DNA from: Deltaproteobacteria bacterium
GTDB taxonomy: Bacteria > UBA10199 > 2-02-FULL-50-16 > JAJFLM01
Reading direction: 5' to 3'
Assembly (NCBI GenBank): GCA_021772655.1
Contig: JAJFLM010000335.1
Location: 34,941-98,940, forward strand
DNA: 64,000 nt
Shown: in pieces, positions 39,701-43,690 of the stretch
Layout: each line of letters begins with the position of its first letter
Numbering within the stretch: position 1 is the first letter of the stretch
Program-made: the position numbers and the translations under genes
The notes under the pieces: generated by a model
What the model saw: the letters and a program-made list of their open reading frames with translations, nothing else
The model's database searches: none
Told to the model about the DNA's origin: nothing

Positions 39701-40101
39701 TGGCATGGCCTCAAACCGTTAGAAAATCCGATCTGAGAATTGACTATTATCGCGGTTCAGGTCCTGGTGGGCAACATAGAAATAAAACTGACTCAGCTTG
39801 TAGAATTACACATATACCTACCGGACTAGTAGCTCAATCAGAAGATCAACGTAGACAAAACCAAAACCGGGGGGTTGCGTTCCGCCGGTTGTGTGTTAAG
39901 CTTGAACCCCTGATGCGGAAAGCCGCTCAAGCGGAAACAATAAAAATAAATAAAGAAGTGATTAGAACATATCACGAACCTAGACAACAAGTAAAAGATC
40001 ATAGAATAAAGGGATCGTGGAATTATAATAGAATTCTTGAAGGGAAAGATTTAGGAAATTTAATAGATAAAGTAATACGCTCCGGTCGTTCAACGGTTTA
40101 G
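39700..40101 (+). CDS. truncated class I peptide chain release factor (PrfH-like GGQ protein)
   Basis: YYRGSGPGGQHRNKTDSACRITHIPTGLVAQSEDQRRQNQNR (GGQ domain), then IRTYHEPRQQVKDHR...NYNRILEGKDLGNLID (RF C-terminal segment). No codon-recognition domains. The ATG at 39700 is preferred over the TTG at 39646. The last 23 nt lie inside tRNA-Ile. Confidence 0.8.
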   Translation: MAWPQTVRKSDLRIDYYRGSGPGGQHRNKTDSACRITHIPTGLVAQSEDQRRQNQNRGVAFRRLCVKLEPLMRKAAQAETIKINKEVIRTYHEPRQQVKDHRIKGSWNYNRILEGKDLGNLIDKVIRSGRSTV

Positions 40102-40154
40102 GACCCCACTCTGATAAGGTGGTAACGGCAGTTCGACTCTGCCCTGGAGTACCA
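40079..40154 (+). tRNA. tRNA-Ile (GAT)
   Basis: Acceptor GCTCCGG/CTGGAGT. Anticodon stem CCACT/GGTGG, loop CTGATAA. T arm GGCAG-TTCGACT-CTGCC. A73 plus CCA. The final A is the A of the next gene's ATG. Confidence 0.8.
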
Positions 40155-40735
40155 TGTTTTGTTTAGAGTGTGGACATATAACCAGTAACCCGAAATTTTG
40201 TAATAGAAGTTGCGCGGCTATATACAACAATAGAAAATATCCAAAGCGTGAGCTTTTACCGAATAAGTTCTGTAAGTGTGGGAATAGAAAATCTGGTTCT
40301 GCTGGGATTTGCAAGAAGTGCACGAAAGATTCTCCTGACGTAAAAAGATTAAAAAGAAGAGCACTTAGAATAAAGAGATATAGTAAAGTAATATCTGAAT
40401 GGATAGAACGCTTGGGCGGCAAATGCGTTCAATGTTCTACAACTGAAGACTTAGAATTTGATCATATAGACCCTTCGAAAAAAGAATATAATGTTTCGAA
40501 AATTCTCGATAGCTACCCCAAAGAGAAATTGGAAGAAGAGTTTTCTAAATGCCAGCTTCTTTGTAATGGTTGTCATAAAGAAAAAAATAAGATAGATAAT
40601 GGAGAAGCTAAACATGGTTCTTTATCTATGTACGTTCATTATAAATGTAGATGTGATTTATGTAGAAAAGCAAGCTCTGACTATCGAAAAATTTATGCCG
40701 CGCGTAGTTCAAGTGGAAAGAATACCGGGTTGTGA
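40154..40735 (+). CDS. HNH endonuclease-like protein (paralog 3 of 3)
   Basis: CVQCSTTEDLEFDHIDPSKKEY...LLCNGCHKEK plus AKHGSLSMYVHYKCRCDLCRK. Extra N-terminal Cys-rich region. The last 39 nt run into tRNA-His. Confidence 0.7.
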   Translation: MFCLECGHITSNPKFCNRSCAAIYNNRKYPKRELLPNKFCKCGNRKSGSAGICKKCTKDSPDVKRLKRRALRIKRYSKVISEWIERLGGKCVQCSTTEDLEFDHIDPSKKEYNVSKILDSYPKEKLEEEFSKCQLLCNGCHKEKNKIDNGEAKHGSLSMYVHYKCRCDLCRKASSDYRKIYAARSSSGKNTGL

Positions 40736-40773
40736 CCCTGGAGATACGAAATCGTGTGTCGTCGTGCGGACCA
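40697..40773 (+). tRNA. tRNA-His (GTG), atypical T arm
   Basis: Encoded G-1. Acceptor CCGCGCG/CGTGCGG. D arm GTTC-AAGTGGAAA-GAAT. Anticodon stem CCGGG/CCTGG, loop TTGTGAC. T arm ACGAA-ATCGTGT-GTCGT (4 bp plus a mismatch). A73 plus CCA. Confidence 0.5.
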
Positions 40774-40779
40774 TTTAAA

Positions 40780-41004
40780 ATGCCTGCCCACTTGACCAAA
40801 ATTGGATCTTTTGTTTTCTCTTTAAATCCATTAGGAGTTCGTCATCTTTGTTGGTTTAATAAAAAAGACAAAAATGCAAATACAGATAGTTGGGATAGTT
40901 ATACAGAACTAGATAATTGGGAAATGTCACAGAATTCTTGTGATTGTGGAATGAATTTTCCTAAACAGTTAAAATTGATTGTATATACACAAAGGTTGCT
41001 GTAG
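40780..41004 (+). CDS. LL-tail zinc-knuckle mini-protein, orphan paralog on the plus strand
   Basis: 74 aa from the ATG at 40780, just after tRNA-His. RHLC...CDCG..FPKQLKLIVYTQRLL-stop. The final Leu-Leu-stop (TTG CTG TAG) lies inside the acceptor stem of tRNA-Arg. Confidence 0.55.
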   Translation: MPAHLTKIGSFVFSLNPLGVRHLCWFNKKDKNANTDSWDSYTELDNWEMSQNSCDCGMNFPKQLKLIVYTQRLL

Positions 41005-41071
41005 CTTAATTGGATAGAGCGCGTCCCTGCGAAGGACGAGGGTGTAGGTTCGAGTCCTACTAGCAGCGCCA
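40995..41071 (+). tRNA. tRNA-Arg (GCG)
   Basis: Acceptor GTTGCTG/TAGCAGC. D arm GCTT-AATTGGATA-GAGC. Anticodon stem CGTCC/GGACG, loop CTGCGAA. T arm GTAGG-TTCGAGT-CCTAC. G73 plus CCA. Confidence 0.75.
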
Positions 41072-41090
41072 TAAATACCTGGGAGGGTGT

Positions 41091-42891: not shown

Positions 42892-42892
42892 T

Positions 42893-42967
42893 GCCCTTGT
42901 AGTTTAAAAGGTAAAACCACGGTTTTGTAATCCGTAGAATTCCGTTCGATTCGGTGCGAGGGCTCCA
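42893..42967 (+). tRNA. tRNA-Thr (TGT)
   Basis: Acceptor GCCCTTG/CGAGGGC. Anticodon loop TTTGTAA. T loop TTCGATT with a weak T stem. U73 plus CCA. The final A is shared with the next ATG. Confidence 0.65.
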
Positions 42968-43149
42968 TGAATTACTTTTGGTATTGTTCTAATTGTAATA
43001 GAACATCTAGGAAAGTCTTTCCTAATAAAATGAAAGCAGCGGAACAGGGTGATTTTCATAGAAAGGTTGCTCCATTCCCTGAATCATTATGTAAGACTCC
43101 TAAAATACAATTAGTACCTACTAAATTAAATAAAGTTCCAAAGGGTTAA
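42967..43149 (+). CDS. spacer mini-ORF (60 aa, basic, Cys-containing)
   Basis: The ATG shares its A with the CCA of tRNA-Thr. GAGGG in the acceptor 3' strand could serve as the SD. The TAA stop lies inside tRNA-Phe. Confidence 0.45.
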   Translation: MNYFWYCSNCNRTSRKVFPNKMKAAEQGDFHRKVAPFPESLCKTPKIQLVPTKLNKVPKG

Positions 43150-43219
43150 CGAGGTGTAAAGGGTAGCACATGAGTTTGAAGCACTCAGGGATCTGGTTCG
43201 ACTCCAGGCGTTAGCACCA
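43145..43219 (+). tRNA. tRNA-Phe (GAA)
   Basis: Acceptor GTTAACG/CGTTAGC. D arm GTGT-AAAGGGTA-GCAC. Anticodon stem TGAGT/ACTCA, loop TTGAAGC. T arm TCTGG-TTCGACT-CCAGG. A73 plus CCA. Confidence 0.85.
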
Positions 43220-43401
43220 TGAAAAATCTTAAAAGTAGAAAACCGGATAGGATTTGTTTTAACTGTAGACATTCTTACCCTAAAAAAGAAGTTTATGGTT
43301 TTAAATGTAGATACTGTATGGATGCAGGATCTTATACTTTTCATAATAATAGCGATAAAAAACTTTATGACTTCAACCCTGACCGACGGAAGCGGAGATG
43401 A
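43219..43401 (+). CDS. spacer mini-ORF (60 aa, zinc-ribbon-like)
   Basis: The ATG shares its A with the CCA of tRNA-Phe. CFNC...CRYC. The last 26 nt lie inside tRNA-Arg(TCG). Confidence 0.45.
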   Translation: MKNLKSRKPDRICFNCRHSYPKKEVYGFKCRYCMDAGSYTFHNNSDKKLYDFNPDRRKRR

Positions 43402-43448
43402 GTCTTCGAAACTTATCGTGGGTGGTTCGACTCCACCTCAGGGTACCA
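43376..43448 (+). tRNA. tRNA-Arg (TCG)
   Basis: Acceptor ACCCTGA/TCAGGGT. Anticodon stem TGAGT/ACTTA, loop CTTCGAA. T arm GGTGG-TTCGACT-CCACC. A73 plus CCA. Confidence 0.75.
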
Positions 43449-43624
43449 TGAACAAAAAAGAAACAATAGAAATAAAATTATATTCTTGTAGAGTTCATTT
43501 TTTTTATACAGGACATGGCCCGGTTCCAGATCCTAATTGTAAAATTTGTAACAAAGTAAAATATAAATATAAGAAACAAAACGCTAAGGCTCTTAGAGAA
43601 GCCAGTAAGAAAATTAAGCCCTAG
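43448..43624 (+). CDS. spacer mini-ORF (58 aa, basic, Cys/His-containing)
   Basis: MNKKETIEIKLYSCRVHFFYTGHGPVPDPNCKICNK... The ATG shares its A with the CCA of tRNA-Arg(TCG). The stop lies inside tRNA-Arg(TCT). The ORF-track version (43295-) starts inside the upstream tRNA. Confidence 0.45.
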   Translation: MNKKETIEIKLYSCRVHFFYTGHGPVPDPNCKICNKVKYKYKKQNAKALREASKKIKP

Positions 43625-43690
43625 CCACCGGACGTGGTATTGAGGTTTCTACCCTCATCATGGTGGGTTCAACTCCTACCTAGGGTGCCA
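43618..43690 (+). tRNA. tRNA-Arg (TCT)
   Basis: Acceptor GCCCTAG/CTAGGGT. Anticodon stem TGAGG/CCTCA, loop TTTCTAC. T arm GTGGG-TTCAACT-CCTAC. G73 plus CCA. Confidence 0.75.

Follow-up and report, generated by a model that had tools for sequence, protein, structure and literature searches.

Open reading frames that end inside tRNAs and start on their last base in a phage tRNA array

The tRNA array and its junctions with reading frames

This work describes a phage tRNA array in which many of the open reading frames (ORFs) that lie between the tRNAs abut or overlap them. The array was found in a 64,000-nucleotide stretch of contig JAJFLM010000335.1, referred to here as the window, where it occupies positions 37212 to 50806 of the plus strand and comprises 28 canonical tRNAs, a tRNA-Ser(tga) and two non-canonical cloverleaves, as judged with ARAGORN and Rfam; CCA is encoded in 31 of the 31. 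The window is part of a phage contig of about 120 kb, for which the gene callers give a length of 119,592, and on which PHROGs matches include a DNA polymerase, helicases, a sigma factor, NAMPT and the large terminase. As far as about 36.3 kb the genes are on the minus strand, and thereafter a plus-strand unit carries the tRNA array and then the terminase. The contig was binned into a metagenome-assembled genome of 3.67 Mb with a contamination of 7.8%, and therefore the host assignment of the phage is uncertain.

The position of the tRNA ends is not the source of the overlaps. With default settings ARAGORN reports 28 tRNAs, 26 of which are recovered by the Rfam model RF00005; for these the 5' ends agree exactly, and the Rfam 3' ends fall at the discriminator base, 3 nt short of the CCA-inclusive ends given by ARAGORN. 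The boundaries called by hand in the initial annotation are the same as those of the covariance model and of ARAGORN, which rules out boundary error. A relaxed ARAGORN run added tRNA-Ser(tga) at 42808-42891 and a cloverleaf at 43618-43690 on the plus strand; this element and another at 43376-43448 (plus strand) both adopt a cloverleaf as their unconstrained minimum-free-energy (MFE) fold. In each, the acceptor stem is 7 bp long and the anticodon loop 7 nt, the T-arm loop is of the GGTTCRACTCC type and the 3' end is CCA. The anticodon loop is CUUCGAA (Arg-UCG) in the element at 43376-43448, whose D arm is degenerate, and UUUCUAC (Arg-UCU) in the one at 43618-43690, which was called at a lowered ARAGORN threshold. 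Default ARAGORN misses both, the relaxed run still misses 43376-43448, and neither matches RF00005 even at E values up to 10; the best covariance match, at 43375-43445, is to tRNA-Sec, with 19.8 bits against a threshold of 47. From their predicted folds, the two elements are probably tRNA-like but non-canonical.

At 15 of the 31 tRNAs the upstream ORF stops between 1 nt before the tRNA and 38 nt inside it, as compiled in a table of all junctions, with nine of the stops in or across the tRNA and six intact just outside; this bears out the count made in the initial annotation. Expressed relative to the first base of the tRNA, the stop offsets are -1 (Met, Gln-ttg and Leu-caa), 0 (Lys-ttt, Ala, Ile-tat and Gly-tcc), +1 (Thr-ggt), +5 (Phe), +7 (Arg-tct), +10 (Pro and Arg-gcg), +23 (Ile-gat), +27 (Arg-tcg) and +38 (His). 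An alternative genetic code is ruled out, as no suppressor tRNA was found and the ORFs are normal under table 11.

The 3' ends of the tRNAs are likewise involved. CCATG follows 7 of the 31 tRNAs, and four of these ATGs open ORFs, so that the A of the start codon is A76 of the tRNA: those at 40154 (193 aa), 42967 (60 aa), 43219 (60 aa) and 43448 (58 aa). The hand calls need correction at two of the seven (42722/42724 and 42891/42893), which are tRNA-T-tRNA junctions where the G of CCATG is base 1 of the following tRNA; they belong to a block of four tRNAs at 42648-42967 on the plus strand, consisting of Gln, a 1-nt spacer (T), Leu, Ser(tga), a 1-nt spacer (T) and Thr(tgt). The CCATG of tRNA-Thr(ggt) opens 20 codons only and, since its flank CCATGAATT is common to the paralogous Thr-tgt, the two are not independent cases. 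A fifth start is flush without sharing a base: at 38758 an ATG directly follows the CCA of tRNA-Lys(ctt) and opens a 119-aa ORF. Measured against the base composition of the window, the proportion of CCATG is above chance, as had been proposed from the sequence (7/31, p=0.0016), and it remains so without the two tRNA-T-tRNA junctions (5/29, p=0.023). The frame opened by the A76 ATG at 40154 stayed open across its spacer in 0 of 20000 shuffles, and each of the three smaller ones in 96 to 137 of 20000 (0.5-0.7%). That the spacer ORFs might be mere chance frames, which the initial annotation had set as the check on its proposal, is thus ruled out by shuffling and homology, and the sequence comparisons given below suggest that most of the junction ORFs are real genes.

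Beside these junctions, we observed that tRNA-Thr(tgt) and tRNA-Thr(ggt) have 15 identical bases (AGGGCTCCATGAATT; 42953-42973 and 44631-44651) that reach 6 nt beyond CCA, while the tRNA bodies are far less alike than this common 3' flank. The flank may be a 3' processing site.

Genes at the junctions

The clearest gene that starts on a tRNA is a modular HNH homing-endonuclease-like gene of 193 aa (40154-40735, plus strand). Its ATG shares A76 of tRNA-Ile(gat) (40079-40154, plus strand; ARAGORN and Rfam), and it ends 38 nt into tRNA-His (40698-40773, plus strand; ARAGORN and Rfam), where the final two bases of the anticodon form its stop TGA together with A37. The protein has 47 homologs, several of them with PF01844, its own score for this family being under the cut-off (13.6 vs 21.4 bits). 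In the alignment C91, C94, C140 and Q134 are invariant and D103, H104, C137 and H141 nearly so (at least 90%), and the ORF contains the HNH/zinc-binding core, with paired CxxC motifs and the D-H and H...N catalytic residues; the product is a putative, homing-endonuclease-like nuclease. Because a zinc module begins at codon 3, in alignment with the extreme N-terminus of another nuclease (P0168), and no alternative start codon was found for the gene, the ATG that shares A76 is, on this alignment, the true HNH start. The tail overlapped by tRNA-His is non-conserved and varies in length among the homologs.

As a separate observation, the N-terminal zinc module (40154-40360; ..SNPKFCNRSCAAIYNN.KYPKR) also heads P0168, an unrelated nuclease of the PF11645 type, and it matches the HNH gene ORF44 of phage Felix O1 by tblastn over residues 1-143; it looks, from these similarities, like a shuffled DNA-binding module of homing endonucleases. 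The tRNA-His that covers the end of the HNH gene has an encoded G-1 (40697-40773 when this base is included) and A73 instead of the usual bacterial C73, and its score is the lowest among the Rfam-detected tRNAs of the array (40.2 bits). Alignment also identified two HNH paralogs on the plus strand, one of 131 aa (37314-37709), whose stop TAA ends 1 nt before tRNA-Met (37711), and a short one of 95 aa (38222-38509), whose stop TAA abuts tRNA-Lys(ttt) at 38510.

The overlap between a protein end and tRNA-Arg(gcg) (40995-41071, plus strand; Rfam 63 bits, with two G-U pairs in the acceptor stem) is of another kind. A family of zinc mini-proteins, defined by H-x-C, C-x(1-2)-C, a P and a C-terminal helix ending in Leu-Leu, is encoded by an array of the phage at 34158-36067, and the 74-aa ORF at 40780-41004 is a plus-strand copy of it between tRNA-His and tRNA-Arg, with all the family features (z=4.1). 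Alignment and codon comparison place its Leu-Leu-stop at positions 2-10 of tRNA-Arg(gcg), so that the 5' strand of the acceptor stem doubles as the Leu-Leu codons. These read TTG CTG TAG, where the array paralogs mostly have TTA TTA TGA; TTG and CTG are among the rarer Leu codons of the phage, and CTG is the rarest. As far as alignment and codon choice can tell, this is true dual coding, and therefore the full protein could be made only from RNA that RNase P has left uncut.

Immediately upstream of tRNA-Ile(gat) lies a gene for a 133-aa protein that consists only of the GGQ domain of RF1 (39700-40101, plus strand), with its last seven codons and the stop TAG in the first 23 nt of that tRNA. 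It matches Pfam RF-1 at 5e-27 and belongs to a large GGQ-domain-only family with 1647 homologs of about 130 aa. In the alignment, homology stops at or just before the tRNA, and the remaining tail is variable and differs in length among the homologs. The overlapped tails of both this release-factor (RF)-like protein and the HNH protein are thus non-conserved and therefore the tRNA sequence sets the overlap; judged by conservation, the tRNA appears to dictate the overlaps throughout, except at tRNA-Arg, where both codes are constrained. The initial annotation had taken the protein for a PrfH-like rescue factor, an assignment that did not hold: the score is below the curated cut-offs for both PrfH (TIGR03072; 74.2 vs 166.65 bits) and ArfB (NF006718; 34.4 vs 100 bits, across 31 residues only), and a search for an ArfB-type tail found no match. 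The protein resembles ArfB/ICT1 and PrfH in keeping the GGQ domain and missing the stop-codon-reading domains, and differs from them by these scores, by a C-terminus like the end of RF1 and by the absence of RtcB from the phage contig (PMC8012679, PMC3950681). RtcB is present in the bin. As a side observation, the bin contig that carries it (C445) has, about 4 kb upstream, a 59-nt blastn match (78% identity) to the tRNA-Arg(gcg) of the array, and might represent either another fragment of phage or an RNA-repair locus of the host.

The other three ORFs that start on A76 follow one another. The 60-aa ORF at 42967-43149 (plus strand) shares A76 of tRNA-Thr(tgt) and ends in TAA at positions 3-5 of tRNA-Phe(gaa) (43145-43219, plus strand; ARAGORN and Rfam). 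From A76 of this tRNA starts a 60-aa ORF with a CxxC...CxxC pattern (43219-43401, plus strand), whose stop TGA falls within the cloverleaf that comes next, at 27 nt from the hand-called 5' end (43375) or 26 nt from the base of the MFE stem (43376). The 58-aa ORF at 43448-43624 (plus strand) shares A76 of the Arg-UCG cloverleaf and ends in TAG at positions 5-7 of the following one. Compared with open spurious frames, which served as the null for all codon scores, those of 42967 (0.203) and 43448 (0.135) are coding-like. The three ORFs keep only the C..C....P core of the zinc mini-protein family, and by this core they look like diverged or truncated relatives of it; 42967 in particular looks, in alignment, like an N-terminally truncated one. 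With tblastn they gave no significant match in cultured phages. Tandem duplication of tRNA+ORF units is ruled out as their origin, as they have no significant mutual similarity.

The remaining junction ORFs, all on the plus strand, stop at or near the 5' end of a tRNA. The 119-aa ORF opened by the flush ATG at 38758 (38758-39117) ends in a TAA that abuts tRNA-Ala (39118), and its codon score (0.241) is coding-like, with no match in a Pfam search. A Cys-rich basic ORF of 98 aa (39204-39500) has its stop TAG at positions 8-10 of tRNA-Pro (39491). The stop TAA of an AAA ATPase of 368 aa (41091-42197; Pfam AAA 9e-10) abuts tRNA-Ile(tat) at 42198, and the stop codon of a DUF1508 protein of 63 aa (42455-42646; Pfam) ends 1 nt before tRNA-Gln(ttg) at 42648. 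In a DUF6899 protein of 88 aa (44304-44570; Pfam) the G of the stop TAG is base 1 of tRNA-Thr(ggt). A 108-aa ORF (50040-50366) stops 1 nt before tRNA-Leu(caa), and a 35-aa ORF (50625-50732), the weakest of the 15 with a codon score of 0.013, abuts tRNA-Gly(tcc).

The array also contains possible small RNAs. Two Y-RNA-like elements (43835-43977 and 44056-44135) lie in it near the gene for Rsr/Ro60 (44871-46472); one combines a weak YrlA match (23.8 bits) with a tRNA-like module, and the other, a short sister copy, consists of a stem only. Between tRNA-Thr(ggt) and rsr lies a segment of 225 nt (44646-44870) that folds strongly (-72.5 kcal/mol), contains two near-identical hairpins AAGCGGGUGAGAGGCCCG and may be another small RNA.

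Overlaps in other phages and in known systems

The background against which these junctions can be judged consists of 49 phage arrays with 861 tRNAs, 19 of them found around RF-like genes and 30 by a pattern scan; its ORFs are defined by length and not by homology, and some are spurious. An upstream ORF of at least 50 aa stops at -1 to +45 in 146 of the 861 tRNAs (17%), and overlaps the tRNA in 117 (13.6%). Stops inside tRNAs, which the initial annotation had singled out, are hence common elsewhere, and what sets the window apart is their frequency (14/31 with the same length and offset limits, p=3e-4). Within the set of 19 arrays (among L013-L083) the offsets show spikes at 0 (11 cases), -1 (7) and +10 (22, of which 16 are TAG). 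The TAG at +10 is U8-A9-G10 of the tRNA, and 48% of the tRNAs in those 19 arrays have TAG there; from this pattern, the conserved U8-A9-G10 seems to act as a backstop stop codon. The homologous proteins P0009, P0110, P0125 and P0137 end in translated tRNA sequence, and the stop of the RF-like gene lies within -9 to +5 of a tRNA in 7 viral loci.

Starts on A76 are scarcer. CCATG follows 7 of the 31 tRNAs in the window and 5 of 215 in other phage arrays (p=1.3e-4), and it opens an ORF of at least 40 aa in 4 of 31 and 1 of 215, respectively (p=1e-3). In a sample of 89 CCATG tRNA ends from viral contigs, a dNMP kinase (L130), whose P-loop domain begins at residue 4, shares A76 of a called tRNA; a ThyX ORF (L094) also opens on A76, but later in-frame ATGs leave its true start ambiguous. 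Such starts are therefore rare but not unique.

No close relative of the phage was seen among viral contigs, where its AAA, Rsr and TerL proteins found no match; nor did the AAA protein match any metagenome contig. Near the closest Rsr relatives that could be fetched (P0171/P0172 contigs, L210-L213) there are no more than two tRNAs, and the terminase is absent from all 3 other genomes of the bin's order. Nor was any relative found that lacks the HNH gene. The best homologs reach 67% identity for the RF-like protein and 57% for Rsr.

Individual cases of the arrangement are already present in cultured phages. In the RefSeq annotation of Felix O1 (NC_005282), the HNH gene ORF44 has 7 nt in common with tRNA-Ile and the end of ORF47 is 1 nt ahead of tRNA-Thr, and in that of mycobacteriophage Crossroads (NC_022071) the HNH gene gp113 overlaps tRNA-Leu by 32 nt; the HNH gene of the window matches those of both phages by tblastn. 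The free-standing homing endonuclease gene segB lies within the tRNA cluster of T4 (PMC2330249), and the four phages are alike in having selfish nuclease genes placed between tRNA genes. Felix O1 further has a gene annotated as 'RNA-binding protein' just before its tRNA array, where the window has Rsr among the tRNAs. The difference from Felix O1 and Crossroads is one of degree, with 15 of 31 tRNAs abutted or overlapped in the window, and of kind, with four genes starting on A76 and none doing so among the genes inspected in those two phages. The word 'overlap' was not found in the text of the Felix O1 genome paper (PMC3185647), and our literature search found no paper on punctuation or overlap between phage tRNAs and coding sequences (CDSs).

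Two further systems offer a comparison. Like the ORFs of mitochondria punctuated by tRNAs, those of the window are directly flanked by tRNAs with zero spacer, as the junction table shows, and excision of the tRNAs would define the mRNA ends, among them 3' ends whose stop is incomplete and starts that have no leader (PMC4394434, PMC6056719). In mitochondria, polyadenylation completes the stop codons and mRNAs are translated after excision (PMC4394434, PMC6056719); in the window, by contrast, stops lie inside tRNAs, starts would be decapitated and other ORFs of the array have ordinary Shine-Dalgarno (SD) sequences. Translation of an excised mRNA is also argued against, for ORF 40780, by the Leu-Leu codons inside tRNA-Arg. 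Bacterial tRNA operons are likewise polycistronic, RNase P separates closely spaced tRNAs in them and RNase E can cut right after CCA, but those transcripts contain only tRNAs (PMC4176162, PMC5291269). The 3' flanks of the array tRNAs are AU-rich. RNase E-type enzymes cut at the motif RN|WUU. As for mixed tRNA-mRNA operons such as tyrU-tufB, to our knowledge their protein genes have no nucleotides in common with the tRNAs.

Expression of the array and weighing of the readings

SD-like tetramers, which the initial annotation had pointed out in the acceptor 3' strands, are indeed present in 12 of the 31 tRNAs but are not enriched before the flush ORFs (3/4, against 9/27 elsewhere; p=0.15), so that a designed feature is ruled out; most plausibly they result simply from the G-richness of the stems. 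Where an ORF of the array has 10-24 nt of room, it mostly has an SD of its own, which suggests that initiation on the precursor is of the ordinary kind. When the tRNA is folded, the mean unpaired probability of positions -13 to -1 is 0.24-0.43 at flush ORFs, compared with 0.25-0.79 at ordinary genes; as this region is mostly paired, weak initiation is to be expected. A terminator-like hairpin at 50842-50875 on the plus strand, 36 nt after the last tRNA, is the strongest intrinsic-terminator-like element of the region in a scan by consensus only, and fits one long transcription unit; promoter-like and terminator-like counts in the region show no excess over shuffles. A CCA-adding enzyme is missing from the phage contig; in the bin there are genes for CCA-adding-type enzymes and for an RNase E/G homolog.

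We consider it probable that the array is a case of extreme gene packing, in which the spacers of a phage tRNA array have been colonised by small or selfish genes that are translated from unprocessed precursors. The array would be transcribed as one long precursor, in which genes directly adjoin the tRNAs; if a gene lacks a stop of its own, translation would run on to the first in-frame stop in the next tRNA, often the conserved U8-A9-G10 read as TAG, and four genes would start at an ATG made of A76 and the following TG. Ribosomes would translate the junction ORFs on nascent or not-yet-processed RNA, and RNase P and 3' processing would afterwards free the tRNAs and destroy the messages; the AU-rich flanks right after CCA would suit RNase E-type cutting (PMC5291269). 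Each RNA molecule would thus yield one product or the other, and the population both. This mutual exclusion of tRNA maturation and translation, inferred in the initial annotation, follows logically, whereas the built-in switch that had been attached to it is unsupported, and no dedicated switch is required for the arrangement. As the ribosome-binding region is occluded by the folded tRNA, the flush ORFs should be expressed at a low level, which would suit homing endonucleases and accessory mini-proteins. T4 also keeps its homing endonuclease genes at low expression, which the proposed situation resembles.

Several observations weigh against this packing explanation. It leaves ribosome initiation 4 nt after a folded acceptor stem without explanation, the codon usage of the HNH gene is atypical, and the codon score of ORF 43219 is indistinguishable from that of spurious frames. 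Moreover, four A76-sharing starts in one array are far above the background of 1/215, and three of them in a row hint at more than chance packing.

ORF 43219 is also one of three that might have lost their function. If 42967, 43219 and 43448 were decaying, functionless relics of zinc mini-proteins, their shared-A starts would be accidental and only the tRNAs would matter, which is in line with the lack of the N-terminal half and the Leu-Leu end of the family in 42967, the weak alignment of 43219 and 43448 with it (z 1.2-2.5), the missing homologs in cultured phages and the spurious-like codons of 43219. We think it unlikely, given frames that are open from the shared ATG across the whole spacer, a condition reached in less than 0.7% of shuffles and here three times in a row, given the coding-like codon usage of 42967 and 43448, and given that the clearly intact HNH gene uses the same type of junction. 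A different explanation gives the tRNAs a role as punctuation: their excision would set the mRNA ends, RNase P cuts would leave non-stop messages for the conserved parts of the proteins, and the GGQ protein would release the peptides, avoiding tagging by transfer-messenger RNA (tmRNA). The nine stops in or across tRNA 5' ends, the seemingly dispensable tails of the RF-like and HNH proteins and the frequent occurrence of the GGQ-only family among phage tRNAs (in 19 of the 80 viral loci with an RF-like gene, 10 or more tRNAs lie within 8 kb, in nearly all cases on the same strand) are consistent with it. RNase P cutting would, on the other hand, truncate ORF 40780, whose conserved Leu-Leu needs the overlapped codons; 6 of the 15 stops remain whole, just ahead of the tRNA, the GGQ protein falls short of the rescue-factor families as described above, and tRNAs are overlapped at the same rate, 13.6%, in arrays with and without an RF-like gene, as judged within the fetched locus and limited by its length, which weakens the link to a rescue factor suggested in the initial annotation. 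We regard this explanation as quite unlikely.

The starts could in turn belong to leaderless mRNAs. Cutting at C75|A76, or after CCA for 38758, would give a message beginning with 5'-AUG and a tRNA ending in CC, which a host CCA-adding enzyme would repair, so that each transcript would yield both products, much as in overlapping mitochondrial tRNAs with one base in common. The four ATGs that share A76 and the one directly after CCA would fit, as would the lack of room for an own SD at any of the five flush starts and the CCA-adding-type enzymes and RNase E/G homolog in the bin. We nevertheless regard it as extremely improbable: we know of no nuclease that cuts at C75|A76, CCA is encoded in all 31 tRNAs, which in bacteria is associated with trimming that leaves the CCA intact, no CCA-adding enzyme is present on the phage contig, the contaminated bin (7.8%) leaves the host unsure, and A76-sharing starts elsewhere are sporadic. 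A broader proposal joins these ideas in a mitochondrion-like punctuated operon, where excision sets the message ends, a GGQ factor or C75|A76 cutting with CCA repair makes both products usable, and tRNA processing and translation are mechanistically coupled; it appears very unlikely to us.

Under the packing explanation, the array is an extreme variant of a habit that is already present, uncommented, in known phage annotations, and what is new in it is the fourfold A76-sharing starts and the dual-coded Leu-Leu and acceptor stem. Gene finders and annotation rules usually forbid overlaps between CDSs and tRNAs. The window and the 49 other arrays show that they occur regularly in phage tRNA arrays, with U8-A9-G10 often serving as a stop codon, and at one junction of the window the shared bases appear to encode a conserved protein end. 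Overlapping genes that can be produced only from unprocessed RNA would be a simple source of low, early or processing-dependent expression of homing endonucleases and mini-proteins and, if the coupling proved functional, the array would be the first counterpart of mitochondrial tRNA punctuation in a bacterial virus.

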